A DNA stretch of 64,000 nucleotides from contig PHAI01000002.1 of assembly GCA_002840305.1 (NCBI GenBank), positions 266,707 through 330,706 on the forward strand. Reading direction: 5' to 3'. Numbering within the stretch: the first letter of the stretch is position 1; each line of letters opens with the position of its first letter. The position numbers and the translations under genes were made by a program. Below the pieces are notes generated by a model. The model was not told the origin of the DNA and did not search any database. It was given only the letters and a program-made list of their open reading frames with translations. This document shows, piece by piece, positions 17,928-61,140 of this stretch. The DNA is from Candidatus Falkowbacteria bacterium HGW-Falkowbacteria-1. Lineage in GTDB: Bacteria; Patescibacteriota; Patescibacteriia; Patescibacteriales; UBA12465.

Positions 17928-18944
17928 TTATAATTCTCTAGTTTCTTCGCGATTCTTACTGTTTGCTAGCCTCAATATCATTAACTTCAATTTATAAGAA
18001 TTACCATGTTTAATTAACCCTAAATAAGAATTCAAAGAATCTTTTTTATTACTTTCTTTTAATTTATAAATCATTCTTCTTTTTGTTGATCTTCTTAAAA
18101 CTTTATACTCGGGAAAATTAATCCACCCCAAAAAATCAAGACCAGAAGAAACTGTTTTGACAAACGTTTTTTGAGGATGAATTTCTAATTTTAAATTTAA
18201 AAATAAAAATTCTTTAATCGGATTAATTTTATTCTCTAACCATTCCTTATTATCTGACATTATTACAAAATCATCGGCATAACGAATATAAAATTTGGCC
18301 TTAATTTTATGTTTTATAAATTGATCAAATATATTAAGATAAATATTGGCAAAAAGCTGAGAAGTGAGATTTCCCAATGGCAAACCCTTACCTTTTTTAA
18401 CTTGAAAGCTATAAATAATATTTTGCAAAAGACAAATAATATTTTCATCAGCAATATATTCATTTAAAATACCAAGCAATACTTGATGATCAATACTAGC
18501 AAAAAATTTTCTAATATCTCCTTTTAGCACCCAACAATTTTTGGTATTATTTTTACTAATTTTCAAAAAAAATTTATTAAATCTTGATACAGCTTTGTGC
18601 GTACCCTTATTTAAACGACAAGAATAACTATCAAATATAAAAATTTTATCGAAAAATGGATATAATTTACGATAAATAGCATGATGAAGTAATCGATCGC
18701 GAACATTAGCTTTATGAATATCTCTAATTTTTGGATCAAAAACTTTAAATGCCTTATAGCCACCGTGATTATATTTATGATATAATAGATCGTAATGTAA
18801 ATTTAAAAGATTGCCCATTAAGCTTATTCCAAACAATTGAACATCACGACGTCCACGCTTGCCATTTAGAAATTCGCCCCAAGCGCTTAACAAGTTATCT
18901 AAATCTATAATATCTTCAAATTTATGAGTCAATTTAATTTTCAT
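17928..18944 (-). CDS. DGR reverse transcriptase
   Basis: 338 aa. LPLGNLTSQLFANIYL is the DGR-typical [I/L]GxxxSQ motif. YIRYADDFVIM is the YxDD catalytic box. There is no maturase/endonuclease tail. It is adjacent to TR/VR. Confidence 0.9.
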   Translation of the reverse strand: MKIKLTHKFEDIIDLDNLLSAWGEFLNGKRGRRDVQLFGISLMGNLLNLHYDLLYHKYNHGGYKAFKVFDPKIRDIHKANVRDRLLHHAIYRKLYPFFDKIFIFDSYSCRLNKGTHKAVSRFNKFFLKISKNNTKNCWVLKGDIRKFFASIDHQVLLGILNEYIADENIICLLQNIIYSFQVKKGKGLPLGNLTSQLFANIYLNIFDQFIKHKIKAKFYIRYADDFVIMSDNKEWLENKINPIKEFLFLNLKLEIHPQKTFVKTVSSGLDFLGWINFPEYKVLRRSTKRRMIYKLKESNKKDSLNSYLGLIKHGNSYKLKLMILRLANSKNREETREL

Positions 18945-18957
18945 ACATCTAATTCTA

Positions 18958-18970
18958 CCCCCCCCCCCCC
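18958..18970. repeat. C13 (G13 on the minus strand) homopolymer
   Basis: I counted it directly: ccc at 18958-18960 plus ten c at 18961-18970. It lies between the RT start codon (18944) and the annotated avd start (19021). Confidence 0.95.
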
Positions 18971-19020
18971 TAAATTTACAACTAGCCCCACTCCTTCAAA
19001 AAAGCAAAGATACATATCTT

Positions 19021-19338
19021 TTGTGGTATTCTTATTTTAAAACATTACCCAAAGAACATCGTTTTAGTCTTGGTATTAAAATAGATAACCTTTTTGTAGA
19101 AATAATAGAATTTATTTCTGGAGCATTATATACAAACAAAGATGAAAAAATATTTTATATAAAAACTGCTATCAGAAAAAATGATGCTTTAAAATTACTA
19201 CTTTTAATTCTTTGGGAAACTAAATCAATAGATAATAAAAAATATTTAATGCTTTCCGAAAAAATCAATGAAATAGGTCGTATGCTCGGAGGTTGGGCTG
19301 GGCAAATTATAAAACAAAACTCCTCTATAAAAAAATAG
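19021..19338 (+). CDS. avd: Avd-like accessory variability determinant (four-helix bundle). The N-terminus is probably incomplete as annotated.
   Basis: LPKEHRFSLG..., a helical heptad character and a C-terminal EIGRMLGGWAGQ resemble Avd / 23S-IVS four-helix proteins. The only start is TTG. It lies on the opposite strand to RT, TR and VR. Confidence 0.7.
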   Translation: MWYSYFKTLPKEHRFSLGIKIDNLFVEIIEFISGALYTNKDEKIFYIKTAIRKNDALKLLLLILWETKSIDNKKYLMLSEKINEIGRMLGGWAGQIIKQNSSIKK

Positions 19339-19350
19339 AGGAGTTTTTTT
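19319..19350 (+). terminator. Intrinsic terminator after avd
   Basis: Stem actcctcta (19319-19327) pairs with tagaggagt (19336-19344). The loop is taaaaaaa and a T7 run follows. It abuts the TR boundary at 19351. Confidence 0.6.
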
Positions 19351-19484
19351 GAAACTTGCGAGAGCACAAAAGCAAACCCGTTATCACGATCCCACCTACT
19401 GCCAGAATTGTCATAGTTCGTATTCAGCCAGGAACCACTGCCATCGCGATTAGCGTTGAGCAATAAAGGATCGCCGTCAGAATT
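19351..19484 (-). repeat. DGR template repeat (TR)
   Basis: It is 134 nt and aligns without gaps to 19833-19966. It contains 28 adenines in the minus-strand sense. In frame it encodes NSDGDPLLLNANRDGSGSWLNTNYDNSGSRWDRDNGFAFVLSQV, which is AAY-rich. Confidence 0.9.
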
Positions 19485-19725
19485 ATGCAAAACACCGCCT
19501 ATTACACCGCCCTTTGAATACTCAAACAGGCTGAATATTATTCGGCATCATAATGCCATAGTGTTTTGCACCAAGTTTCGTTATATAGCATCAATATTTC
19601 ACTCTACCTACAGCCTTGGCCGAAGATATTCTCAAAATAATAACGCTCATCACAGTGGCCACCAACCTTGATCAATGACATATTCACTTTGACTGATTCT
19701 ATTTTAACATATTTACAAAATTTAT

Positions 19726-19764
19726 AAAAAAATAGCCTCGGCTTGCTTATGCAATCCGAGGCTA
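19726..19764 (-). terminator. Intrinsic terminator of the DGR target gene
   Basis: tagcctcgg (19733-19741) pairs with ccgaggcta (19756-19764), with an inner ttgc/gcaa pairing. On the minus strand a T7 run follows (A-run 19726-19732 on plus). Confidence 0.7.
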
Positions 19765-19765
19765 A

Positions 19766-19830
19766 AAATCAAAGGGCTAAAGGCCAAGACCTAAAGACTC
19801 AAAGAGTCAAAAAATCAAAAGACTAAGAAC
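19766..19830. repeat. Degenerate ~8-nt periodic repeat array
   Basis: The plus strand reads ggctaaag gccaagac ctaaagac tcaaagag tcaaaaaa tcaaaaga ctaagaac. It lies between the terminator hairpin and the target stop codon. Confidence 0.4.
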
Positions 19831-20443
19831 CCGAAACTTGCGAGAGCACAAAAGCAAACCCGCCACCACGAACCCACCTACTGCCAGAACCGCCACAGTC
19901 CGCATCCAGCCAGGAACCACTGCCATCGCGACCAGCGCTGAGCAATAAAGGATCGCCGTCAGAATCCTTAATAGGTTCGTGCATAACAACAATCCAATAT
20001 AAGCCCATAGCTTCAAGTTCTTTATCAGAGAATTTCTCCCTAAAAAGACAGGCCGCTTCGGCATTTGGTGTGGAAAGTTTGCGATTTTTAGCTTCTTTGC
20101 GGATGTTTTTAGTTATCCTATCGTTGTCGCTAAAAATCTCTCCCTTAAGGACAGCAATTTCATAAGTTACACCATTTGTTGGTTTAAAACTTTTTGAGCA
20201 TAAAATGCTCTTTGCATAATCACTGACGCGGAAGTCTTTACTTTCTAAACGTATAATCCACTGTTCGCCGGTTGCACCATCACTGGTAAGCGAAAAATAA
20301 ATTATACCATTTTCTTCACGCCATTTTTTTTCTGGCTCACTAACCAATGTTTCACCTCGTAAGAAACGAAGGGCACTTTCCATACCACCAAGTTTATTCA
20401 CAATGGCCTCAATTTGTCCTAAATTCAATTCTCCGTATTTCAT
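19823..20443 (-). CDS. DGR variable (target) protein, with a C-terminal CLec-like variable region and no signal peptide
   Basis: 206 aa. The C-terminus DSDGDPLLLSAGRDGSGSWLDADCGGSGSRWVRGGGFAFVLSQVSGS is encoded by the VR. The N-terminus MKYGELNLGQIEAIVNKLGG is hydrophilic. Confidence 0.85.
   Translation of the reverse strand: MKYGELNLGQIEAIVNKLGGMESALRFLRGETLVSEPEKKWREENGIIYFSLTSDGATGEQWIIRLESKDFRVSDYAKSILCSKSFKPTNGVTYEIAVLKGEIFSDNDRITKNIRKEAKNRKLSTPNAEAACLFREKFSDKELEAMGLYWIVVMHEPIKDSDGDPLLLSAGRDGSGSWLDADCGGSGSRWVRGGGFAFVLSQVSGS
19833..19966 (-). repeat. DGR variable repeat (VR)
   Basis: It has 15 mismatches to TR, and every one is at a TR adenine (14 A->G, 1 A->T). They affect 12 codons. 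The 3'-most 30 nt (19833-19862) are identical to TR. Confidence 0.9.
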
Positions 20444-20594
20444 AACAATAAGTATTTGCAGACTGTTTGTCTGTGTTTCTGCTGTCCGCAGTGGGAACTA
20501 TAACTATTATTAATTACAGCTAAAAAATAACTAAAAACATAATTATCTCTTAGCTGTAACTAATTTTTTGAGCTTTTCAAGGTACTAACTGCAT

Positions 20595-20623
20595 ATTATA
20601 TCATATTTGAAATATTTTGTCAA
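20595..20623 (-). promoter_or_regulatory. Consensus sigma70 promoter of the DGR target gene
   Basis: On the minus strand: cTATTGACA, a 17-nt spacer, then TATAAT (tgtcaa at 20618-20623, attata at 20595-20600). It predicts a leader of about 145 nt. Confidence 0.6.
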
Positions 20624-48546: not shown

Positions 48547-49002
48547 TTATTCCAATTTTCCTTCCAGCTCTTCAATCCTTTTTTTTAAATTGTTTATATT
48601 TTCTTCACTCTCTCCCAATGCATCTTTTTGAATGCTTTCATCTAATTCTTTTTTATCGTTTATACTTTTTTCTTCTTCTATTTTTTCGCTAACTGCCTTC
48701 TCCATTATTAGACCCAACACAGAAGAAGTAGCACTAATATTATTCTCATCTATTTTGCTATCCATAAGAACAGAAAATTCTTCCAAAGTTTTATCCAAGT
48801 CATCTTTGGCAGTATCTTTGATAGTAAAAAGATCAAGACTACTTCCCTCGGCAGCTTTGCTATTAGCAAAGAAAATGTCATTAAAATCAGAAATCCAAAT
48901 AAAAAAAACAGCCAAAGTTGCAACGACAACAAAAATCATTAACCAAAATCTCTTGTCTTTTTTCTTTATAACATTTTTAAATTTTTCAAAATTCTCTAAC
49001 AT
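48547..49002 (-). CDS. Hypothetical membrane-anchored coiled-coil protein
   Basis: 151 aa with an N-terminal TM segment (FWLMIFVVVATLAVFFIW). Confidence 0.45.
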   Translation of the reverse strand: MLENFEKFKNVIKKKDKRFWLMIFVVVATLAVFFIWISDFNDIFFANSKAAEGSSLDLFTIKDTAKDDLDKTLEEFSVLMDSKIDENNISATSSVLGLIMEKAVSEKIEEEKSINDKKELDESIQKDALGESEENINNLKKRIEELEGKLE

Positions 49003-50413: not shown

Positions 50414-50543
50414 AAAAAAGCAATATTAATTTTTATATTCTTTACCCTAATAAAACATACAAAAAGCTAATTTCTTAGCTTTTTAATACTCATTCATCTA
50501 CCCTTATAATAGCAAAATTTAATTTTAAGGTCAACATATATAA

Positions 50544-50575
50544 ATAAAAAACCCGTTGTTTTGTAACAACGGGTT
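50544..50575 (-). terminator. Terminator of the 385-aa island gene
   Basis: 11-bp stem aacccgttgtt / aacaacgggtt with loop ttgt and a T-run on the minus strand. Confidence 0.7.
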
Positions 50576-50595
50576 GTAAAAATTGCGCTAAATTC

Positions 50596-51753
50596 TCAAT
50601 TAGTATCAGAGGTTATTACCCCTTGACGAATTGTGAATTTTCCTTTTTGACGACGAGATACTGGTAATTCCGCTATAAAAAAGCGGTTAGTATTCGTCGT
50701 GCCTGCTGGCCTGTACATAAAAGATACATTACCGGCTGGCAAGGAAAAAGCTGTGTATCGCTCAGATGCAATCAAGGCTCGTTCGTTCTTATCTGAAAAA
50801 ACGCGACTACCAACTTCGTCCATTGTAGCCCCCCAGAAAAATTCTAATCCGGGAGACACAAATGTCCTCAAGAAAATAGTCTTTTTTCTACCAGAACCAA
50901 AGACTGTGTTATCCTTTGATCCCAATATTCCAGACAAGTCTTGAGGGACAACAGTGAGTATTACTCCGCTGCTGTCAACCGAAGCTCTTAATTTTTTTCT
51001 GGTTCCATCTTGGTTCCAGACTTGAACCCAACCATAATTAGGAATTTTTATTTCAAAGTCGAAATCATAATTCCCTGGTTCAGGCGCCTCTACAACTTTT
51101 GCGTTAACACTTTTAAGAGTGCCCTCAATGTTAACAGCCTCGCCACCTTCCACTAAAAATTTTGCATCACCCAAAGAAATAAACATTGGATAATTGATTT
51201 TAGTTTTCAAGGTGACTCTAGGAAGAGGACGAAGACCTAAGGCTTTGTCGGTTAACTCAAACTTTAAACTATGCCCAACATCGCCAGCGTTTTTATCAAG
51301 TAACTGTTCGGCTCCTAATAATTGGCCGGAAACAATTTTTGAAATTTGTTGTCCGCCATCGTTATAGGTGACCATAAACGCCAAGTGCAAAGCTTCTGTT
51401 GGTTTACTGGCAACAGGTTTCTTGTCTTTTTTATAGGTAAAATATATAACCTGCGCTGGAAAAGAAATCTCTGCATCAGCAGATTTCATTTCGTAACCGC
51501 TTGCCGAAGCAACGGGCACTGCCCAAATTCTCTCCTTCAAAAGGCTTTTATAAACGCCACTGTTTAGCGGCATAATTGTCAAATCCTTTATTCTAGAGCT
51601 GTTAGTCACTGTGATAAAAGCACTTGCGCCTCCGGCCGGCTTGTCGGTTCTAAACCAAGGATTCTGCGTCCACTCCTGAGCTTTAAGCTCAGAAAAGCAC
51701 ATTGCCACCATTAATATGGTTGGCACCAATAAGTAACGAAACATCTTTTTCAT
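50596..51753 (-). CDS. Hypothetical secreted beta-rich protein (island gene 1)
   Basis: A signal-peptide-like N-terminus MKKMFRYLLVPTILMVAMCFSELKAQE. No family was recognised. Its GC is higher than the flanks. Confidence 0.55.
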   Translation of the reverse strand: MKKMFRYLLVPTILMVAMCFSELKAQEWTQNPWFRTDKPAGGASAFITVTNSSRIKDLTIMPLNSGVYKSLLKERIWAVPVASASGYEMKSADAEISFPAQVIYFTYKKDKKPVASKPTEALHLAFMVTYNDGGQQISKIVSGQLLGAEQLLDKNAGDVGHSLKFELTDKALGLRPLPRVTLKTKINYPMFISLGDAKFLVEGGEAVNIEGTLKSVNAKVVEAPEPGNYDFDFEIKIPNYGWVQVWNQDGTRKKLRASVDSSGVILTVVPQDLSGILGSKDNTVFGSGRKKTIFLRTFVSPGLEFFWGATMDEVGSRVFSDKNERALIASERYTAFSLPAGNVSFMYRPAGTTNTNRFFIAELPVSRRQKGKFTIRQGVITSDTN

Positions 51754-51858
51754 GATCTTCTTATTTTTAAGTTAAACATTCATTTTCCTTCAAAAATATA
51801 TTGTTTGCAATACTGCGCTTGCAATACCACAAAATGTCAAAGTTCTAACAAACATATA

Positions 51859-51887
51859 ACTATATCACATATAAAAAAATTTGTCAA
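51859..51887 (-). promoter_or_regulatory. Consensus sigma70 promoter of island gene 1
   Basis: On the minus strand: gTATTGACA, a 17-nt spacer, then TATAGT. Confidence 0.6.
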
Positions 51888-51949
51888 TACCCTGACAAAC
51901 GCCCAACAAAAAAGAAGAAGGTAACCGATTTTTAATTTACAAAAAATTA

Positions 51950-51988
51950 AAAAAAATAAAAAAGGCAGTGGATTTGTTCCTCTGCCTT
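51950..51988 (-). terminator. Terminator of island gene 2
   Basis: Stem aaggcag / ctgcctt (51962-51968 / 51982-51988), followed by a long T-run on the minus strand. Confidence 0.55.
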
Positions 51989-52010
51989 ATTGTGAAATTT
52001 TTTTTGCCCT

Positions 52011-52472
52011 TTAGAAAGGCGACTCTTCTTCGTCTCCGAATAGGCCACCACCTTCAACCGCACCAGTTGTGTCAGCTACTTGAACAGAAATCGATTTTAA
52101 ACTATCAATTTCATGTTTCAGCCTTTTCTGCTCAGCCTCTATTTTGGAGGCTCGAGAATTGGCATAACCTGCACTGCGAACTGCCTTGTCGGCTTTGATA
52201 GCAACGCTGTCGACTCTTTTGTTTAGGTTGATAATCTCCTGAAAAATTTCAGGAATTTTAACCGTATCAATAACTGTCACAGTACTGTCAACCACCACAA
52301 GAGCGTTATTGACGCGAACAACAGTGTTGTTAACACCCATGATTTGGTCAAACAGCATTTTGTTTCCTGTTTCAACTCGATTTCCCAAATTGGAAATTCC
52401 AACAAATAAAACAATGCCTACTATAAGGGACAGGGCTATAGCGCCAATGCCCAGCACACGGTCTGTGTTCAT
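52011..52472 (-). CDS. Hypothetical membrane-anchored coiled-coil protein (island gene 2)
   Basis: 153 aa with an N-terminal TM segment (LGIGAIALSLIVGIVLFVGI) and an acidic tail. GGAGG lies 7 nt upstream of the ATG. Confidence 0.55.
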   Translation of the reverse strand: MNTDRVLGIGAIALSLIVGIVLFVGISNLGNRVETGNKMLFDQIMGVNNTVVRVNNALVVVDSTVTVIDTVKIPEIFQEIINLNKRVDSVAIKADKAVRSAGYANSRASKIEAEQKRLKHEIDSLKSISVQVADTTGAVEGGGLFGDEEESPF

Positions 52473-52521
52473 GATTTATCCTCCATTTTTAAGTTACTAT
52501 TAATAAAACAACTAACCAAAT

Positions 52522-52550
52522 ATATTAGCATACAAAAAAAAATTTGTCAA
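52522..52550 (-). promoter_or_regulatory. Consensus sigma70 promoter of island gene 2
   Basis: On the minus strand: cTATTGACA, a 17-nt spacer, then TAATAT. The -35 box overlaps the stop codon of island gene 3. Confidence 0.55.
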
Positions 52551-52963
52551 TAGCCAGACCTAAGTCTCTTCATTTCCGTAAAAACGCTATCTTGCACTGA
52601 CAACAAGTGGCTATAAACAGCTTGCAATACCCCGTCGTACTCATTCAATCTTTTTATGACTTTAGCACTCTTCCTTTTTTCTTCTTCCAATGAGATGCTT
52701 ATTTTACTGTTCTGTTTTTCTAAGCTTTCTATTCTACTCAACATCTCTTCTTTGTTGAAGTCACTCTTGGGCCTAGAGACAAGAACGGGCTCTCCCTTTT
52801 TAACTTTATGCACAACAGGGACAAAAGGCTCTACTTTCTTAATACCATCAAGCTTGGCATAGAAAGCGCTCGATTCATCGTTCATCTTATTCATTTTAAG
52901 AACAAGAAAGACCACAAAAACAGTGGCCAGAACAAAAAAAATAGTTAAAAGACTCTTTTTCAT
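52547..52963 (-). CDS. Hypothetical membrane-anchored coiled-coil protein (island gene 3)
   Basis: 138 aa with an N-terminal TM segment (LLTIFFVLATVFVVFLVL). Confidence 0.5.
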   Translation of the reverse strand: MKKSLLTIFFVLATVFVVFLVLKMNKMNDESSAFYAKLDGIKKVEPFVPVVHKVKKGEPVLVSRPKSDFNKEEMLSRIESLEKQNSKISISLEEEKRKSAKVIKRLNEYDGVLQAVYSHLLSVQDSVFTEMKRLRSGY

Positions 52964-53035
52964 GATATATAGTGTTTTTAGTTTTTAATGTGCAAAATAA
53001 ATACAAAAAAAATTGTATTTTTAAAAAATCTTTTT

Positions 53036-53064
53036 ATTGTACAATAAAAAAAATATAATGTCAA
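53036..53064 (-). promoter_or_regulatory. Consensus-like promoter of island gene 3
   Basis: On the minus strand: cTATTGACA, a 17-nt spacer, then TACAAT. Confidence 0.55.
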
Positions 53065-53080
53065 TAGTGACTATTGACAT
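53058..53080. repeat. 23-bp perfect palindrome containing both -35 boxes of a divergent promoter pair
   Basis: atgtcaatagt-g-actattgacat, read directly from the sequence. Confidence 0.95.
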
Positions 53081-53102
53081 AAATAATATAATATGCTATA
53101 AT
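53074..53102 (+). promoter_or_regulatory. Perfect consensus sigma70 promoter of island gene 4
   Basis: TTGACA (53074-53079), a 17-nt spacer, then TATAAT (53097-53102). Confidence 0.65.
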
Positions 53103-53232
53103 CCAAAGTTAGTACAAAAGGTTACTATAAATTGATCATTGAAAAACAATTAAAATTTCCAGTGAGATTAAAACTCGCTTTTTATTTTACTAGAAATTTT
53201 AATTAAATTATGTACCTAAAAAAACAGAAATC

Positions 53233-53784
53233 ATGGGAGAAATCAAAAAAATTACGCCTCTCGACTACATTTATGAGGGAGAAGAAATGGTTGGTGTAAA
53301 AACCACCGAATATGGCGAACTACGAATAAGCTATTGGGAAGAAAAGGAGATTCGCTCTTTTGACAATGTTGAATTCAAAATCCCGTCCATGTTTGGAAAA
53401 TTTATGAAATTCGTGCCAGAAAGAGTTCGTCTCTGGAAAAATGGCGAATTTCAAAAAATGTTGCCCCACTGGATGTACGGAGTTTTTGTAAAAGGAGTTG
53501 AAAAGGATGTCTTGGTAACGAGATGCTACTACCACTCCGACCCCAGCAAAACATCAGAGAACCTTCCATTTGGACAAACAGTTGTTGGTTCGCTAGAAAT
53601 GAAATTTTCCACAAACACTAAGACTGGTGAAAAAAAATTAATTTTAAATTTTGTCTACGGTGGTTCCCGAGAAAAAGCTCAAAAAAGAGTTATAATCGAC
53701 GGTAAGCCGGACGAAACAAAACCAAATTTTCAAATAACAGTCCCCGGCTCTGGTGGAAAAAAAATAACGGTTGTTAATATTTAA
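53233..53784 (+). CDS. Hypothetical soluble protein (island gene 4)
   Basis: 183-aa ORF with no TM segment or signal peptide. No family was recognised. Confidence 0.5.
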   Translation: MGEIKKITPLDYIYEGEEMVGVKTTEYGELRISYWEEKEIRSFDNVEFKIPSMFGKFMKFVPERVRLWKNGEFQKMLPHWMYGVFVKGVEKDVLVTRCYYHSDPSKTSENLPFGQTVVGSLEMKFSTNTKTGEKKLILNFVYGGSREKAQKRVIIDGKPDETKPNFQITVPGSGGKKITVVNI

Positions 53785-53807
53785 AAACAACCGTTAAAAA
53801 AACCTAT

Positions 53808-53838
53808 AAGCAGCAAAGAACATCTTGCTGCTTTTTTT
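53808..53838 (+). terminator. Terminator (probably bidirectional) between island gene 4 and glyQS
   Basis: Stem aagcagcaa / ttgctgctt with an 8-nt loop, followed by T7. Confidence 0.65.
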
Positions 53839-55231
53839 ATTTTTCTATTTTATCTTTAAAATAAGAAACTAAATTTTTTATATCTATTCTTTCTTGTACC
53901 ATAGTATCTCTGTCTCTAATTGTAACGCTTTCATTTTCTAAACTGTCAAAATCAACAGTTAAACAATAAGGCGTACCTATTTCATCTTGGCGACGATATC
54001 TCTTACCAATATTACCATTATCATCAAATTCGCATTTCCAAATTAATTTTAATTCATCAAAAATATCTTTAGCTTTTTTAACCAATTCTGGTTTATTTTT
54101 AAGCAATGGGAAAATGGCTATTTTAATAGGGGCCAATTTAGGTGAAATTTTCAAAACAATTCTAGCGCCATCGCCTTCGCCTTCCTCGGTATAAGCTTCA
54201 GACAAAATGGCCAAAAATGTTCTTCCTACCCCGGCTGAAGTTTCTACTATATGAGGAACGAACTTTTCACCGCTTGTTACATCAAAATAAGACAAATCTT
54301 GACCAGAATGTTTGCTATGTTGACTCAAATCATAATCACCACGAGCATGAACGCCTTCTAATTCCTTAAAACCAAAAGGATAATTGTATTCAATATCATA
54401 AGCCTCTTTAGCATAAAAAACTAAATTTTCATGTTTGTGCCATTTTAAATTCTTCTCTTTAATACCCAGGTCCAAATAAAACTTCCAGCGTGTTTCCTTC
54501 CACTCATTATAATACTTCTCTTGGGTATCCGGTTTGATAAAGTATTGCATTTCCATTTGTTCAAATTCGCGAGTTCTAAAAATGAACTGTCTGGCAGTTA
54601 TTTCGTTCCTAAAAGCTTTGCCAATTTGAGCGATACCAAAAGGAACCTTTACTCTAGCGGAATCCAAAACATTTTTATAATTTACATAAATCCCCTGACA
54701 AGTTTCTCCCCTAAGATAAGTTGGCTCCTTACTCCAGTCACCAGTAAAGTTTCCTAGATTTGATTGAACCAATAAATTAAATTTTTTACCAGGAGTAAAA
54801 TCCTTGGCGCCACAATTTGGACATTTTATTTTATCTTTATTCTTATCAAAAATTTCATTAATTTCATCTTCGCTCATCTTTTCATCGGCAAAAATACCAG
54901 CATCCTCAAGTAGCGAGTCTAGCCTTAAGCGAGAATGACATTTTTTACATTCGGTTAACGGGTCAGAAAAGCCTTTGACGTGCCCAGAGGCTTCCCATAT
55001 TTTAGGACTCATAAAAATGGCCGAATCAAGACCAACTACATCATCACGAAACTGAGTCATGGCCCTCCACCAGGCATTTTTAATATTATTCGCCAATTCA
55101 ACACCATAGGGGCCAAGATCATAAACAGCTGAAAAGCCGTCATAAATTTCTGAGGACGGAAAAACAAAGCCCCTTCTTTTACATAAAGAAACAATTTTTT
55201 CCATTTTATTATCTTGATTTTTGTTTGTCAT
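53837..55231 (-). CDS. glyQS: Glycyl-tRNA synthetase (dimeric class II type)
   Basis: IVSLCKRRGFVFPSSEIYDG, GLRGETCQGIYVNY-like motif 2 and SAGVGRTFLAIL motif 3. I chose the start at MTNKNQ (55231), which avoids overlap with argS. Confidence 0.88.
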   Translation of the reverse strand: MTNKNQDNKMEKIVSLCKRRGFVFPSSEIYDGFSAVYDLGPYGVELANNIKNAWWRAMTQFRDDVVGLDSAIFMSPKIWEASGHVKGFSDPLTECKKCHSRLRLDSLLEDAGIFADEKMSEDEINEIFDKNKDKIKCPNCGAKDFTPGKKFNLLVQSNLGNFTGDWSKEPTYLRGETCQGIYVNYKNVLDSARVKVPFGIAQIGKAFRNEITARQFIFRTREFEQMEMQYFIKPDTQEKYYNEWKETRWKFYLDLGIKEKNLKWHKHENLVFYAKEAYDIEYNYPFGFKELEGVHARGDYDLSQHSKHSGQDLSYFDVTSGEKFVPHIVETSAGVGRTFLAILSEAYTEEGEGDGARIVLKISPKLAPIKIAIFPLLKNKPELVKKAKDIFDELKLIWKCEFDDNGNIGKRYRRQDEIGTPYCLTVDFDSLENESVTIRDRDTMVQERIDIKNLVSYFKDKIEK

Positions 55232-55236
55232 ATGTT

Positions 55237-56904
55237 TCAAATTTCCTCTAAACTCTCTATGCCCAAAAGTTTTAAAGCATTTTCTAATAATAAAGAGCAA
55301 GAGTATATAAAAATTAATCTAGCCTTTTTTAAATTATCCTCTGTCTGCAAAATATTAATTTTCTGATAATAATCATTAAATAGTTTGGCAAAATCAAAAA
55401 GATACTTAGCAATCTCACTAGGGTCATTGTCTTGCCCTGTCTTATAAACAATATCAGAATATTTAGCCATTTCCAAGGCTATCTTTTTTTCTATATCACT
55501 TTGCAATAAATCAAGACTGTATTCAACGCTCTCCGCAAAGTCAGCTTTTCTCAAGATGCTCTTCATCCTAACCAAGGTATATAAAATATACAGTGCACTA
55601 TAACCATCAAATCTTAAAGCCTCTTCTATATTGAAAGTTATCGTTTTGTTAGCGCCAACTTTTAACATCTCAAATTTTAAAATAGCCACGGCTAATTTTT
55701 GACAATTATTTTTTATTTTTTTATCGTCCCAGTCTTCATGCCTCTTTTTACTCTCTAATATTAGCTTATCAAAAATTTGATCAAAAAGATCTTTAAGCAA
55801 CACAACTTTGCCAGAACGAGAAGACATCATACCCTCTGGAAGTTTAACGAAATCATAAGCTAAATGAGTAAAATCATTTTTATAACCAGCTAACTCCAAA
55901 ATTTTAAACAATTGCTTAAAATGGAGACTCTGCCGAACATCAACTACAATAAAAGATTTTTTCAAGTCAGGAAAATCTTGATCCTTCTTTTCGGCTAGTG
56001 CTAAATCAGCTACGGCATACAAAGATGTCCCGTCGCTTCTAACGACTGGCAAAACACCCAACCCATATTCTTCCAAATCAGCAATTATGGCGCCTTGACT
56101 CTTTTTAAATATTCCCTTCTTTAAAAAATCGTCAACAATTTCTACTCCCCTCTTGGTAAAATCACTTTCAAAATAAGTTTTATAAAAATTTATATCCAAA
56201 AGAGAATAAATATCTTCAAATTCTTTCATGCTCAAATCCCTAGTCTTTTTCCACAAATCATAGTTTTCACCATCTTCCTTTTCTATCTCTATCATTATCT
56301 GACTAATTTCTTCTTTCAAGTCTGGATTCTTGTCAATCTCTGACACGGACCAAGCATAACACTGGCCTATATTTTGACTGTAATTTTGCTTATAAGCCCA
56401 AACTGTTTTGGCAGTGTTTATACCTAAATCATTAATGAAAGATACCGGATAAGAATCGAAACCGTTGGCCTTAGAAATTTTAACCAAAGAATCACCGAAG
56501 ACAATATTTCTCAAATGACCAATGTGAATTTCTTTATGAGTATTGGCGTTCGAATATTCAAAAATAATTTTTTGATTTTGGCCATCCTGATTATACCCTA
56601 AATCATTCTTATTATTTAAGACGTAAGAAATGGTTTCATTAAACAAAAACTTTTTATCAAGAAAAAAATTGAGATAAGGGCCGCTTGCTTCTATCTTTTC
56701 AAAAATAAAATTCAATTCATTATCATTTAAAATCTTCTCCCTAAAATCGTTTGCCAATTCCTGCACGTTTATTTTTCTTTCCTTGGACAAAGAAAAAAGA
56801 GGCAAAGAAATATCGCCCATTTCACTATTTGGTGGATAAGCAAAAATATCAATATTAATTTTCAATTTTTTGCCTATTAGTTGTTTTATTTCCTTCAAAA
56901 TCAT
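55237..56904 (-). CDS. argS: Arginyl-tRNA synthetase
   Basis: SNANTHKEIHIGHLRN (HIGH) and MSSRSGKVV (a KMSK-like motif). 555 aa. Confidence 0.9.
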   Translation of the reverse strand: MILKEIKQLIGKKLKINIDIFAYPPNSEMGDISLPLFSLSKERKINVQELANDFREKILNDNELNFIFEKIEASGPYLNFFLDKKFLFNETISYVLNNKNDLGYNQDGQNQKIIFEYSNANTHKEIHIGHLRNIVFGDSLVKISKANGFDSYPVSFINDLGINTAKTVWAYKQNYSQNIGQCYAWSVSEIDKNPDLKEEISQIMIEIEKEDGENYDLWKKTRDLSMKEFEDIYSLLDINFYKTYFESDFTKRGVEIVDDFLKKGIFKKSQGAIIADLEEYGLGVLPVVRSDGTSLYAVADLALAEKKDQDFPDLKKSFIVVDVRQSLHFKQLFKILELAGYKNDFTHLAYDFVKLPEGMMSSRSGKVVLLKDLFDQIFDKLILESKKRHEDWDDKKIKNNCQKLAVAILKFEMLKVGANKTITFNIEEALRFDGYSALYILYTLVRMKSILRKADFAESVEYSLDLLQSDIEKKIALEMAKYSDIVYKTGQDNDPSEIAKYLFDFAKLFNDYYQKINILQTEDNLKKARLIFIYSCSLLLENALKLLGIESLEEI

Positions 56905-57099: not shown

Positions 57100-58110
57100 A
57101 TGGTCTCTTATAGAACGATTTTAAAACAAGCCTGGAGAATTTCCTGGAAAAATAAATTTCTATGGTTTTTCGGGTTTTTTGCTTCCCTTATTAGCTTTGG
57201 TGCTGAGTTTAAAATTATCTCCAGATCAATAAGTCAAGAAACTGGCTTCAAAATGTTAAACAATATCGGCATGTTTATAAAGACTGGTATTTTTTCCAAA
57301 AATGCTCTAAACAATGCTCTCGAATTAATAAAAACAGACCTAGGCTCATTTTTAGCCTTAATCTTATTTTTACTTTTAATCTTGGCCGTTTTCTTGTTCT
57401 TTGTTTGGTTGGCTACTGTTTCCCAAATATCTATTATTGACGCTGTTAAAAAGATAACAAAAAACGTCAAGGAAAAAATAACAATAAAAAATCAACTAAA
57501 CAAAGCCAACGCAAAATTTTGGCCAGTTCTATGGATGAATCTAATCATGAGTGTAATGATAAATGGAATAACTCTTTTGATCAGTATTTTGTTGATATTT
57601 ATACTGCTTCAAAATAAACCAATCTTCCTCTTTCTATACGGAATCATCTTTATTGCCTTTATTCCAATAATCTTATTCCTATCTTTTATAATTAAATATT
57701 CTATCGCCTACGTAGTAATTGACGGCAAGAGCTTTTCATCAGCCCTAAAAAAGGGTTGGAAATTATTTAGAGACAACTGGTTGATAAGCATAGAAATGGC
57801 GATAACATTGTTTTTTATAAACATCGTGGCCATGTTAGCAGTTTCAACCTTAGCATTTTTAGGTCTAATATTTATAATAGGGATAGCCATGACTTCTACT
57901 ATTTTTATTATTTCTTCGCAAATTATTTTCTGGTTCTTGATAACTATTGCAATTCTACTTGCTGTAGCAATAATGATTGTAGGTGGGTCAATAATTAACA
58001 CCTTCCAAATAAGCACCTGGACGGATTTATTTATAAAGTTAAAAGAAAATAAAGTTAGTGGTAAATTAGAAAGAATTTTCTCCGAAGGAAATACCCCAAA
58101 TAAACTATAA
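57100..58110 (+). CDS. Hypothetical polytopic membrane protein
   Basis: 336 aa with about 6-7 TM segments. Its stop lies 3 nt before the start of the ATPase gene. Confidence 0.55.
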   Translation: MVSYRTILKQAWRISWKNKFLWFFGFFASLISFGAEFKIISRSISQETGFKMLNNIGMFIKTGIFSKNALNNALELIKTDLGSFLALILFLLLILAVFLFFVWLATVSQISIIDAVKKITKNVKEKITIKNQLNKANAKFWPVLWMNLIMSVMINGITLLISILLIFILLQNKPIFLFLYGIIFIAFIPIILFLSFIIKYSIAYVVIDGKSFSSALKKGWKLFRDNWLISIEMAITLFFINIVAMLAVSTLAFLGLIFIIGIAMTSTIFIISSQIIFWFLITIAILLAVAIMIVGGSIINTFQISTWTDLFIKLKENKVSGKLERIFSEGNTPNKL

Positions 58111-58113
58111 AAT

Positions 58114-61100
58114 ATGAGTGGATTCAATTCAATTTCCAGTTTGTTAAACAAGGATGAGGAGGCAAATGAAGACAGTGCGCAAGGCAAATTTGCGGTCAAA
58201 CAAAAGGAAATAGAACTAAAAGAAGTGGAAAGACAAACTCAGACCAAGGCTTCGACCTTGGGTCTTTCTTATGTTGATTTGTTTGCCTTTCCGGTGAGCC
58301 CAGAAGCTATTGCTCTAATACCAGAAGAAGAGGCCGAAAAAGAAAAACTTGTTTGTTTTTATTACGATGGTGAAAATATAAGAGTAGGAACGACCAGGCC
58401 AGAAAATCCAAAAATAAAAGAAATGGAAGAATATTTAAACAAAACCTACTTTACAACAAGCAAGGCATATTTGATATCCGAAAATAGTTTTAAATGCGCC
58501 ATGGATGTTTACAAGACAATACCAAAGGTAAGCAAAGTAACTGGTGGCGTGGAGATAAAAGAAGAAGACCTAGAAAGATTTAAATCGGATATCAAGGATT
58601 ATAAAAGTTTAAACGAAAAAATAAACACTGTTAATATATCCGAAGTTGTAACACTCGTATTGGCAACAGCTTTAAAAGTTGGTTCCAGTGATATCCATAT
58701 TGAATCTGAAGAGAATGGAATAGTTGTAAGACTCAGGATTGACGGCGTCTTACAAGAAGCTGCTACGATCGACAAAATCAAATGGAAAAGAATAATATCC
58801 CGCATGAAAATACTGGCTGGAGTAAAAATAAACATAGAAGACAAGCCACAAGATGGTAGATATTCTATTTTTTTAAAAAATGAAAGAGTTGATGTTAGGT
58901 CTTCCTTCTTGCCGACCTCTTATGGCGAAAGCGTGGTTATGAGACTTTTAAAATCAAGCTCAGTTGGATTATCATTTGAGGATTTAGGTATTATGCCCCA
59001 GGCCTACGAAATATTAAAAAAGGAAATTGAAAAACCAAATGGCTTAATTCTTACAACTGGTCCGACTGGAAGCGGAAAAACAACCACTCTTTATGCTATT
59101 TTAAACAAGTTAAACCAACCAGGAACAAAAATTATAACCTTGGAAGATCCAATAGAATACCAACTAGAGGGTGTAAACCAAAGTCAAATAAACGCCAAAA
59201 AGGGCTATACTTTTGCCAACGGTCTAAGATCAATACTTAGACAAGATCCGGACATAGTTATGATTGGCGAAACTAGAGACCTGGAAACAGCTGAAATTTC
59301 AGTTCAAGCCAGTTTAACTGGACACTTAGTTTTATCAACACTACACACCAACGATTCTGCCGGAGTAATACCTCGCTTAATTGACATGGGAATAAAACCG
59401 TATTTTCTTGTCCCCTCTATAAACGCCGTGATAGGACAAAGATTGATTAGAAAAGTTTGCCCTAAATGTAGGGAGGTACATCAATTAAATGAAGATGAAG
59501 AATTATTAGTAAAAAAAATATTAGGAGTAATATCTCCTAAATCAGGGCTAAGCATCCCAACGACACTACCATCTTTATACAAAGCTGGGGCTGGTTGCGA
59601 ACATTGTAACGGTCTAGGATATAAAGGAAGAATCGGTATCTACGAAGTATTTACCATGGACGATAAATTAAAGCAATTAACCATAGACAATGCTCCATCT
59701 TTTAAAATACTACAACAAGCTATAGAAAATGGAATGATAACCATGCTTCAAGACGGAATACTTAAGTCATTAAAAGGATTAACCACCTTAGAAGAAGTTT
59801 ATAGGGTCATCGGAGACTTTGATTATGTCAACGAATTGTATGACGTAGCTATTTCAAAAACAATGGGAAGAGGAATCAAAATTAAAGCAGAAGATTTAGA
59901 AAAAGCAAAAAATTTAATAAAACAACCAGAGTCTATACAAGGACTAATGAGAGAGGTGCCAACCAAAGAAATAATAGGAATCTTGATGTCCTTGGCTATA
60001 AAAAGTGATGCCGGAGATCTTCACGTTGAACCAACGGAAAAAAATGTAAAGATTCGTTTTAGAATAGACGGAGTTTTGCACGATATATTTGAATTACCAA
60101 AGGATAATTATCTCCCACTTTTGGGTGAAATTAAAATATTAATTGGAGTAGAGACTAATGTCAAAAAATCAACCATAGATGGGCGCTTTACTATTTTTAT
60201 GCCAGATTCAAAACTTGATTGTCGTGTTTCTATTATATCTGGGGGTTTTGGAGAAACAGTGGTAATAAGATTACTAACTGGAGCCGGAGAAGCTTTGGAT
60301 GTAGAAAAATTGGGCTTATCAAAATATGCTTTGCCAGTTCTTAAGAGGTCAATGGTCAAAACCAGGGGAATACTTTTAACTACTGGTCCGACAGGAAGTG
60401 GTAAAACAACAACATTGTATAGCGTATTAAAAACAATAAACACCCCCGACGTTAAAATAATAACCGTTGAAGATCCGATAGAGTACCAAATGGAAGGAAT
60501 TATTCAAACTCAAATTGACAGTGAGGGTGGATACACCTTTGCAGCCGCCATGAGATCGCTGCTTAGACAAAACCCAAACATCATGATGATTGGAGAAATA
60601 AGGGACAAGGAAACGGCTGAGATAGCAATTGAGGCTGCTCTTACTGGACACTTAGTTCTGTCAACTATCCATACCAACAGTGCGGCTGGCGCTGTTTCTC
60701 GTTTTTCCGGCTTAGGTGTTGAAAGACAAATGCTAGCCAACGCTCTAGAATGCTCCATCGGACAAAGATTGGTTAGAAAAATATGCCCATTCTGCGAAAA
60801 AGAAGAGTTAGTCTTGGACGATATAAAACTAGCTGAAATAAAAAACATATTAGACAGTATAAAAAACCCAGATGTCATAATTCCAAGTCAAATGAAATTC
60901 TACAGAGGCAAAGGCTGCGACAAATGTAATAATATAGGTTATAAAGGCAGACTTGGATTATACGAAGCACTAGAAGTAAGCGACGATGTAAGAAAAATAA
61001 TAAACACTGAATCAGCTAGCGATAAAGAAATCGAAGAGGCGGCCATCAAAAATGGCATGGTAAGCGTTATCCAAGATGGAGTGTTAAAAGCTTTGGAAGG

Positions 61101-61140
61101 ATTAACAACAATCGACGAAGTGTTTAGAGTTGCTAAGTAA
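58114..61140 (+). CDS. Tandem-fused double PilB/GspE-type secretion/pilus ATPase
   Basis: Module 1 (aa 1-567) has an N-terminal GspE_N-like domain. It also has Walker A GPTGSGKTTT (nt 59059-59082), DPDIVMIGETRD, TGHLVLSTLHTN and CPKC..CEHC. Module 2 (aa 568-1008) repeats all of these: GPTGSGKTTT (nt 60385-60408), NPNIMMIGEIRD, TGHLVLSTIHTN and CPFC..CDKC. Confidence 0.85.
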   Translation: MSGFNSISSLLNKDEEANEDSAQGKFAVKQKEIELKEVERQTQTKASTLGLSYVDLFAFPVSPEAIALIPEEEAEKEKLVCFYYDGENIRVGTTRPENPKIKEMEEYLNKTYFTTSKAYLISENSFKCAMDVYKTIPKVSKVTGGVEIKEEDLERFKSDIKDYKSLNEKINTVNISEVVTLVLATALKVGSSDIHIESEENGIVVRLRIDGVLQEAATIDKIKWKRIISRMKILAGVKINIEDKPQDGRYSIFLKNERVDVRSSFLPTSYGESVVMRLLKSSSVGLSFEDLGIMPQAYEILKKEIEKPNGLILTTGPTGSGKTTTLYAILNKLNQPGTKIITLEDPIEYQLEGVNQSQINAKKGYTFANGLRSILRQDPDIVMIGETRDLETAEISVQASLTGHLVLSTLHTNDSAGVIPRLIDMGIKPYFLVPSINAVIGQRLIRKVCPKCREVHQLNEDEELLVKKILGVISPKSGLSIPTTLPSLYKAGAGCEHCNGLGYKGRIGIYEVFTMDDKLKQLTIDNAPSFKILQQAIENGMITMLQDGILKSLKGLTTLEEVYRVIGDFDYVNELYDVAISKTMGRGIKIKAEDLEKAKNLIKQPESIQGLMREVPTKEIIGILMSLAIKSDAGDLHVEPTEKNVKIRFRIDGVLHDIFELPKDNYLPLLGEIKILIGVETNVKKSTIDGRFTIFMPDSKLDCRVSIISGGFGETVVIRLLTGAGEALDVEKLGLSKYALPVLKRSMVKTRGILLTTGPTGSGKTTTLYSVLKTINTPDVKIITVEDPIEYQMEGIIQTQIDSEGGYTFAAAMRSLLRQNPNIMMIGEIRDKETAEIAIEAALTGHLVLSTIHTNSAAGAVSRFSGLGVERQMLANALECSIGQRLVRKICPFCEKEELVLDDIKLAEIKNILDSIKNPDVIIPSQMKFYRGKGCDKCNNIGYKGRLGLYEALEVSDDVRKIINTESASDKEIEEAAIKNGMVSVIQDGVLKALEGLTTIDEVFRVAK

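Follow-up and report, generated by a model that had tools for sequence, protein, structure and literature searches.

A syntenic four-gene cluster of a narrow Falkowbacteria clade that probably encodes strongly expressed, fast-evolving and mostly envelope proteins

The four genes considered here lie in a 64-kb stretch of DNA (the window, by which the whole stretch at its full length is meant throughout) that, by sequence match, belongs to Candidatus Falkowbacteria bacterium HGW-Falkowbacteria-1, a member of the Patescibacteria or candidate phyla radiation (CPR). Bacteria of the CPR are thought to live attached to other cells, their surface proteins are mostly unidentified "hypotheticals", and lineage-specific hypothetical envelope genes are common in their genomes. 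The block formed by the four genes is flanked by a gene for a metallo-β-lactamase (MBL)-fold hydrolase (Lactamase_B_3, E = 1e-53) on one side and by glyQS on the other, and its products, called A to D, are identical to PKM91559.1–PKM91562.1 (locus tags CVU82_03110 to CVU82_03125). Gene A (CVU82_03110, PKM91559.1; 50596–51753, minus strand) encodes a 385-aa precursor with a signal peptide, gene B (CVU82_03115; 52011–52472, minus strand) a protein of 153 aa and pI 5.2, gene C (CVU82_03120; 52547–52963, minus strand) a protein of 138 aa and pI 9.6, and gene D (CVU82_03125; 53233–53784, plus strand) a protein of 183 aa and pI 9.1. The original prediction, made from the sequence of the window, had placed these open reading frames (ORFs) exactly and had taken the block for an accessory, possibly horizontally acquired, cell-surface module. 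The analysis reported here favours, with a probability of roughly 60%, a cluster that is vertically inherited within a narrow Falkowbacteria clade, is strongly expressed and fast-evolving, encodes mostly envelope proteins and is not a horizontal island. No paper on the proteins of this genome was found in the literature.

The related loci and lineages compared with the window are labelled L001–L014 and L016. Context look-ups of homologues place the block in the same slot, between the MBL gene and glyQS and amid collinear housekeeping genes, in at least five other diverged lineages (L001/L002; L004–L007 with L013; L016; L011/L012/L014; and L008–L010, where D only is present, beside a contig break at a transposase). 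The collinear run comprises about 18 genes, namely those for Wzy_C, RmuC, GyrA, a 151-aa transmembrane protein, NDK and the MBL protein before the block, and those for GlyRS, ArgRS, DUF7544, a 1008-aa T2SSE ATPase, Translin, Metallophos, Inositol_P and Patatin after it. The genes keep their order and orientation in all lineages, and D, which is present in all lineages examined, is the most widely retained and most conserved member. With a dS of 1.4–2.2, synonymous sites have reached saturation between the window and L001, and the synteny of the block is therefore old. Co-occurrence of the four genes in related genomes, proposed earlier as a check, holds in part: the block is kept in related lineages, but B and C are replaced in L011 and only D is found in L008–L010. 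Pfam and PHROG scans of the four ORFs revealed no mobility genes, and no integrase, transposase, tRNA or repeat boundary was found in the block (no dedicated tRNA scan of the flanks was made). Relatives of the block proteins were not found in 2.9 million viral contigs, plasmid collections not being part of the search; a phage or prophage origin was considered and set aside, given no PHROG match and no viral-contig relatives.

Each of the four genes has a near-consensus promoter. Sigma-70 matches of at least 11 of 12 positions occur six times in the window, and three of the six lie at A, C and D. The promoter of A (51859–51887, minus strand; TTGACA-17-TATAGT, 11/12) has a TG-extended –10 element, and L002 and L004 have almost the same hexamers and spacer. 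That of B (52522–52550, minus strand; TTGACA-17-TAATAT with TG, 10/12) overlaps the end of C, whose TGA stop falls inside the –35 TTGACA, and the promoter at the same position in L004 scores 12/12. The promoters of C (53036–53064, minus strand; TTGACA-17-TACAAT, 11/12, and 12/12 in L004) and D (53074–53102, plus strand; TTGACA-17-TATAAT with TG, 12/12, kept in L002, L004, L008 and L014) stand back-to-back, so placed that the two –35 boxes form a 23-nt palindrome (53058–53080). This palindrome is a perfect 10+10 repeat with a 3-nt centre (ATGTCAATAG TCA CTATTGACAT); it is less symmetric in L002 and spread apart in L004, which makes a side effect of the back-to-back promoter layout the probable explanation and not an operator.

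The transcripts of A and B are predicted to end at intrinsic terminators of their own. The terminator of A (50550–50575, minus strand) consists of an 11-bp stem followed by a T-run, the stem AACCCGTT...AACGGGTT being conserved in L004, L002 and L014. The one of B (51949–51988, minus strand), an AAGGCAG...CUGCCUU stem followed by a U-run, was absent from the pattern scan because of its loop size and was confirmed by folding. D and the convergent glyQS have a bidirectional intrinsic terminator in common (53808–53833), and equivalents of it and of the B terminator are present in L004, L002 and L014. No terminator was found between C and B by the pattern scan. Hence the earlier claim of a near-consensus promoter for each gene is borne out, with conservation across lineages, and that of a terminator for each gene stands for A, B and D and falls for C, leaving three or four transcription units, not four insulated ones; B has a promoter of its own and is probably also transcribed by read-through from C. 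The 5' leader of A (51754–51852, minus strand) is about 100 nt long, with a 13-bp hairpin near its 5' end (51804–51833) that is kept in L002 and not in L004, and folds with a minimum free energy (MFE) of –20 kcal/mol (z = –2.4 against shuffled controls). The leader of D (53109–53232, plus strand), of about 125 nt, is also structured (MFE –20.3 kcal/mol, z = –3.0, with 0 of 200 shuffles as stable); its length is conserved, its sequence only partly. A search of the block, leaders included, with Rfam gave nothing credible.

In a comparison of several lineages, the promoters (10–12/12) and terminators keep the same relative positions in L004, L002 and L014, and no non-coding sequence is better conserved than the promoter cores. 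The spacers within the block measure 182–269 nt, against a window median of 42 nt. The same type of promoter is found at the MBL gene, at the gene for HU and at the target gene of a diversity-generating retroelement (DGR) elsewhere in the window, and the monocistronic HU gene has a similar layout: its promoter is TG-extended, and a leader and a terminator of its own are present.

The four-gene interval is the highest-GC 3.3-kb stretch of the window (top 0.2% of positions), and the second-highest is the DGR locus, so that the GC scan confirms an earlier remark by which the DGR locus alone has comparable GC. The GC content is 36.5% over the interval, 41.2, 42.6, 37.2 and 37.9% in genes A to D, respectively, and 43–44% in 300-nt peaks, against 32.5% for the window and a gene mean of 33.2% (standard deviation, SD, 4.0). 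The elevation claimed in the original prediction is significant and was right in direction, but it was put too large (40–45% against the 36.5% of the interval and the 37–43% of the genes); the alternative it had allowed for, a GC and codon profile like the background, is not what was computed, the interval being the top 3.3-kb stretch. The GC content at third codon positions (GC3) is 0.36–0.42 in the block genes against a mean of 0.283 (SD 0.043), with A, B and C ranking first to third of 51 minus-strand genes and D first on the plus strand (Mann-Whitney p = 0.0005). Almost all of the GC3 excess lies at two-fold codons ending in a pyrimidine (NNY), where C is chosen over T in 43.7% of cases in the block and in 20.9% elsewhere (overall, p = 4e-10), and in 42.3% of cases in A–C against 17.4% in the other minus-strand genes (p = 3e-10). 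By contrast, neither G-ending codons of the purine class (NNR) nor four-fold sites show a significant shift in the block genes, and the remaining GC difference, at codon positions 1 and 2, is one of amino-acid composition (Val, Thr, Gly and Pro up; Ile, Leu, Asn and Asp down).

A preference for NNC codons is what translational selection usually leaves in AT-rich bacteria, and the minus-strand gene that ranks next after A–C by this measure is that of HU, a classic abundant protein. The bias is seen again in L004 (A–C, p = 0.008; D, p = 0.004) and in L008 (D, p = 0.0004), and the GC3 and NNC excess is kept in orthologues past synonymous saturation. Since only one codon class (NNC over NNT) carries the excess, with no general shift, it points to expression level and not to foreign origin, and its retention in orthologues suggests a signal maintained by selection, whereas a decaying foreign signature would fade. 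The GC excess fits a mixture, partly of expression-linked codon choice (C for T at NNY codons) and partly of amino-acid composition. A strong strand asymmetry runs through the whole window, C-ending NNY codons amounting to 40% on plus-strand genes and 17% on minus-strand genes, and codon-bias and GC3 comparisons in this genome therefore need to be stratified by strand.

The proteins of the block have diverged fast. Between the window and L004, identity is 66–90% in the flanks, 37% for A, 42% for B, 37% for C (partial) and 56% for D; between the window and L011 it is 78–87% in the flanks, 27% for A and 46% for D, with B and C replaced in L011 by a single transmembrane (TM) protein with a poly-acidic tail. 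Taken together, the orthologues of A stand at 74, 37 and 27% identity and those of B at 48 and 42%. The unsaturated pair L004/L016 gives dN/dS values of 0.079 (A), 0.044 (B), 0.35 (C, the fastest-evolving member) and 0.024 (D), compared with 0.02–0.08 in the flanks, which amounts to a 15-fold spread of evolutionary rates within the block. The purifying selection on all four marks them as real, constrained genes, and their fast divergence explains their orphan status. The A gene of L003, a near-identical strain (99.6–100% DNA identity over about 20 kb), has a clean in-frame 69-nt deletion of residues 88–110 (window 51426–51492 against L003 10260–10261), which lie in the segment most variable between lineages; the deletion may represent population-level indel variation in an exposed loop or an artefact of metagenome assembly.

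The anchor that stands in for B and C is seen in two lineages (stretches concerned, including the ORFs beside the anchor gene in L008: L008 1–958 and 1106–1723; L011 7334–7852; L014 5301–5801). It is a TM protein whose C-terminal end is a long run of Glu and Asp with CDC motifs on either side (e.g., ...DCDCEEEE(E)nCDC). In L008, an insertion-sequence-like ORF pair (a helix-turn-helix ORF and a DDE-type fragment) abuts the anchor gene at the contig end, in the position expected for an A-like gene.

The signal peptide of A is a Sec peptide of AXA type (ELKA/QE), conserved in the orthologues. Mature A has 360 aa, 39.7 kDa and pI 9.4, is Cys-free and is β-rich in its AlphaFold2 model (predicted local distance difference test, pLDDT, 56 overall and below 50 in the C-terminal third). 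Its C-terminal third is basic (pI 10.2), and the C-terminal 115 aa are basic in all lineages (pI 9.6–10.4), even where similarity has vanished. A was also considered as a lipoprotein and rejected as such, the Cys of the signal peptide not being conserved in the orthologues. In B, the N-terminal TM anchor is followed by a V/T-rich segment, a strongly heptad-periodic helix (residues 72–135, p<0.0005) and an acidic tail (GDEEESPF); the protein lacks Cys and has the conserved core ADKA...ANSRAS...LEAEQ...IDSLKS; its orthologues are acidic-tailed too, and its pI is 4.8–5.2 across lineages. A class III (pilin/archaellin) signal peptide in B was rejected, because the glycine before the hydrophobic segment is not conserved. 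C, too, is TM-anchored at its N-terminus, and a Pro-containing linker leads to a heptad-periodic helix at its C-terminus (residues 68–138, p = 0.0035). D has no signal peptide, TM segment or hydrophobic segment and is a basic protein with an all-β model (pLDDT 62) and an invariant LVTRCYYH motif. Much of what had been predicted for the products accordingly holds, i.e., the signal peptide on the 385-aa protein (its AXA site is conserved in orthologues), the N-terminal anchors and coiled coils of B and C (one N-terminal hydrophobic segment and a significant heptad periodicity in each) and, by its lack of a hydrophobic segment, the soluble character of the 183-aa protein; the cell-surface reading agrees with the signal peptide of A and with the anchors and coiled-coil ectodomains of B and C, and does not extend to D.

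That no family could be assigned to any of the four proteins was likewise correct. Pfam, NCBIfam, PHROGs and PADLOC gave none, apart from sub-threshold coiled-coil noise, there was no usable fold match, and a scan of all orthologues of A and D for a recurring weak family found none, a weak match to DUF4165 appearing in the three closest A sequences only and not recurring. Among 5.8 billion proteins, A is represented by 6 clusters and D by 5; the profile of A retrieves 3 representatives among 1.84 billion, and D occurs in 2 of about 185,000 species representatives of GTDB. Sequence searches of the PDB with A, B, C and D gave nothing significant, and the profile of A has no PDB chain at E<=1. 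The AlphaFold2 models are of low confidence because the alignments are shallow, and Foldseek found no match with a TM-score above 0.25 in the PDB and BFVD (for A against the PDB, none above 0.15); viral Foldseek matches at E<0.001 were discarded as meaningless, with TM-scores of about 0.2. The neighbours obtained by Foldseek, all non-significant, include multi-immunoglobulin (Ig) surface proteins and pilins for A, and oligonucleotide-binding (OB)-fold single-stranded DNA-binding (SSB) proteins as the best for D.

Altogether, these features suggest that the products of the block are probably abundant envelope proteins, a cell-surface reading being plausible for A, B and C and unproven for the block as a whole module. 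A would be exported by Sec as a 40-kDa, basic, Cys-free and β-rich surface protein, and B and C would each span the membrane once and expose a coiled coil outside the cytoplasm, with an acidic tail at the end of B. A might then build an abundant outer coat or adhesive layer, its basic C-terminal domain being held either by the acidic tails of the membrane-anchored stalks or by anionic polymers of the wall. The anchors are acidic and the C-terminus of A is basic, and the substitutes in L008 and L011 carry poly-Glu tails; in the lineage in which B and C are replaced, the N-terminal two-thirds of A are conserved and its C-terminal third is unalignable. This joint change of the C-terminal third and the anchor fits the tethering model. 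The variable N-proximal loop of A could be exposed and shaped by phage, host or partner pressure, which would fit its variable and indel-prone character. D is best described as a putative cytoplasmic basic β-protein with the same expression signature and synteny, and may be a functionally separate abundant protein of the cytoplasm.

Several points weigh against this picture. High expression is read solely from the promoters, the codon bias and the gene layout, and the pairing of A with the anchors from charge complementarity and one co-variation event. The NNY-C bias of D in the window is not significant against the other plus-strand genes (p = 0.38), since NNC is much commoner in plus-strand genes in general (40%), and the A-like gene of L011 lacks the GC3 excess (0.246). 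The membrane topology of B is ambiguous by the positive-inside rule, the description of A as a β-rich surface protein is only coarse at the confidence of its model, and Pfam detected no known wall-binding or surface-layer (S-layer) domain in the block.

In gene design and bulk properties, not by homology, A seems to resemble most the Gram-positive S-layer genes of the slpA kind. As in the slpA-type genes of Lactobacillus, A is predicted to be Sec-exported, about 40 kDa, basic (pI 9.4) and Cys-free, with a strongly basic terminal domain and very fast divergence between relatives; its monocistronic gene has a near-consensus promoter, a structured leader of ~100 nt, a strong terminator and an expression-type codon bias. 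A thus has the profile of S-layer proteins as exported, Cys-poor proteins of 40–200 kDa from strongly expressed genes (an 11/12 TG promoter in this case), with an abundance that would follow from these features. However, A and its orthologues lack a SLAP, SLH or CWB2 domain in Pfam, even at E<=1, and slpA loci have no counterpart to the membrane-anchored coiled-coil proteins of the block. For B, the nearest likeness is to the Braun lipoprotein Lpp, a trimeric coiled coil, and to other coiled-coil tethers or spacers of the envelope. B resembles Lpp as a short protein, mostly a heptad-periodic helix, with an N-terminal membrane anchor and apparently very high expression; by analogy with a spacer role of the Lpp kind, B could set the distance between the membrane and an outer layer. 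B differs from Lpp in having a TM helix without a lipobox (no Cys) and an acidic C-terminal tail without the peptidoglycan-linking Lys, and a PDB profile match of B to Lpp is at noise level (E = 0.93).

Among the alternatives, the one that survives best, possible if not likely, is that the block is no functional module and that unrelated, individually expressed, lineage-specific genes occupy a permissive slot, with D being separate, e.g., a nucleic-acid-binding protein. A promoter per gene and a terminator for most genes are in keeping with this, and so are the 15-fold rate spread inside the block and the character of D, which is cytoplasmic and basic, far more constrained (dN/dS 0.02), kept where B and C are replaced and has OB-fold SSB proteins as its non-significant best fold neighbours. 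Order and orientation are, however, conserved across all lineages, one codon and promoter signature is common to all four genes, and the charge complementarity and the co-variation of the C-terminus of A with the type of anchor suggest that A and the anchors are linked. A bolder form of the surface reading, somewhat more doubtful than the previous alternative, is that A, B and C make up an undescribed coat or host-attachment apparatus of this Falkowbacteria subclade, in which A docks on acidic stalks, the docking domain and the stalk forming a co-evolving, replaceable pair, and D is a cytoplasmic partner (e.g., an export or regulatory factor with a new fold).

It is unlikely that A is the polymerising subunit of a surface filament, either a donor-strand pilus of the Pam type or another adhesive fibre, with B and C as its membrane base. 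Pam pilins (PamA/PamB) are CPR-specific, Sec-exported, two-domain β-proteins of 39–55 kDa, they are among the most abundant proteins of the cell and very divergent in sequence, and their operons encode PapD/FimC-like chaperones with C-terminal TM helices as well as tip and terminator subunits, all bearing signal peptides (10.64898/2026.03.03.709456). A would share with them the restriction to CPR, the predicted export, a β-rich character (by its low-confidence model), a similar size (39.7 kDa), a presumed abundance and a divergence beyond ordinary homology search, and multi-Ig surface proteins and pilins are among its non-significant Foldseek neighbours. By contrast, the block has neither PapD/FimC-like two-β-domain chaperones with C-terminal TM helices nor a tip-pilin or terminator-like paralogue, mature A has no paired cysteines, B and C are α-helical and anchored at the N-terminus, and D lacks a signal peptide. 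Moreover, the profile of A has no sequence match in the PDB, and Pam homologues are reported mainly from Saccharimonadia and Microgenomatia (10.64898/2026.03.03.709456). The block is no demonstrable member of the S-layer or Pam families.

The reading of the block as an accessory, horizontally acquired island, whose GC and autonomous promoters were left from a foreign donor, has become very improbable. It drew on the status of the block as the highest-GC 3.3-kb stretch of the window, on proteins that are near-orphans and on long spacers. A patchy distribution, as expected of a genomic island, is not what is seen, the block keeping its slot and flanks in at least five lineages past synonymous saturation; nor is there a general, decaying compositional deviation, and a GC3 excess that is limited to NNY codons and persists in orthologues with saturated dS runs contrary to amelioration. 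The block is also without island-type boundaries, mobility genes or viral-contig relatives in the searches described above, and its promoters are of the organism's own type. A foreign island and native, highly expressed, fast-evolving surface genes can thus be separated from sequence alone, the tools being promoter strength, codon-class-specific bias, synteny and relative rates, and a GC bump in an AT-rich genome can reflect expression level and need not reflect horizontal transfer.

Equally improbable is that B and C are PilN/PilO-like or FlaF/FlaG-like parts of the nearby type IV filament machinery (T2SSE ATPase, 58114–61140, and its DUF7544 partner), with A as an associated secreted factor: the paired bitopic TM and coiled-coil architecture of B and C, the label "archaellum component FlaF" given to B in IMG and the conserved 1008-aa PilB-like ATPase 4.3 kb away in every lineage are outweighed by the absence of any PilN (PF05137), PilO (PF04350), archaellin or FlaF/FlaG hidden Markov model (HMM) match for B and C at E<=1 in Pfam and NCBIfam, by the origin of the FlaF label in one source (IMG) and in no HMM, by the non-conserved glycine before the hydrophobic segment of B and hence no class III signal peptide, by ectodomains that are heptad-periodic helices with no room, at 153 and 138 aa, for a globular domain, by two aminoacyl-tRNA synthetase genes between the block and the ATPase and by very strong individual promoters that are atypical for assembly-platform genes. 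In the stretch of the window from 57100 to 61140, the 1008-aa protein combines two tandem T2SSE (PilB-like) ATPase domains with an MshEN domain, which makes it a fused type IV filament ATPase of unusual form; a DUF7544-like membrane protein precedes it, and the pair is 77–81% identical, with its position kept in all related lineages.

With the favoured reading of a native, vertically inherited cluster, CVU82_03110 to CVU82_03125 and their orthologues become candidates for the major proteins of the envelope in one clade of Falkowbacteria. A related lineage turned up in 70 blocks of the assembly collection, which makes these candidates checkable in existing metatranscriptomes and metaproteomes. 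Transcript-shaped contigs were considered as a hint of expression and discarded, the short contigs turning out to be genomic.

Other features of the window can be noted. Between gyrA and ndk (48547–49002) lies the gene of the 151-aa protein, which has an N-terminal anchor and an acidic C-terminal region and diverges fast (42–69% identity); its GC is ordinary (29%), it has no strong promoter, and the heptad periodicity of its C-terminal region is not significant (p = 0.32). The mechanical ORF of glyQS (53837–55300) has a TTG start, which gives 487 aa and a 64-nt overlap with the end of argS; its true start is probably the ATG at 55231 (464 aa), because the orthologues have 460–464 aa. The DGR (17928–20623) has a reverse transcriptase gene (RVT_1, E = 2e-25; 17928–18944, minus strand) and a pair of template and variable repeats of 133 nt that are 89% identical (19351–19483 and 19833–19965), the variable repeat lying at the 3' end of a 206-aa orphan gene (19823–20443, GC 42.4%). 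The promoter of this target gene scores 12/12 and is TG-extended (20623–20595), and the gene ranks fifth in NNY-C on the minus strand.

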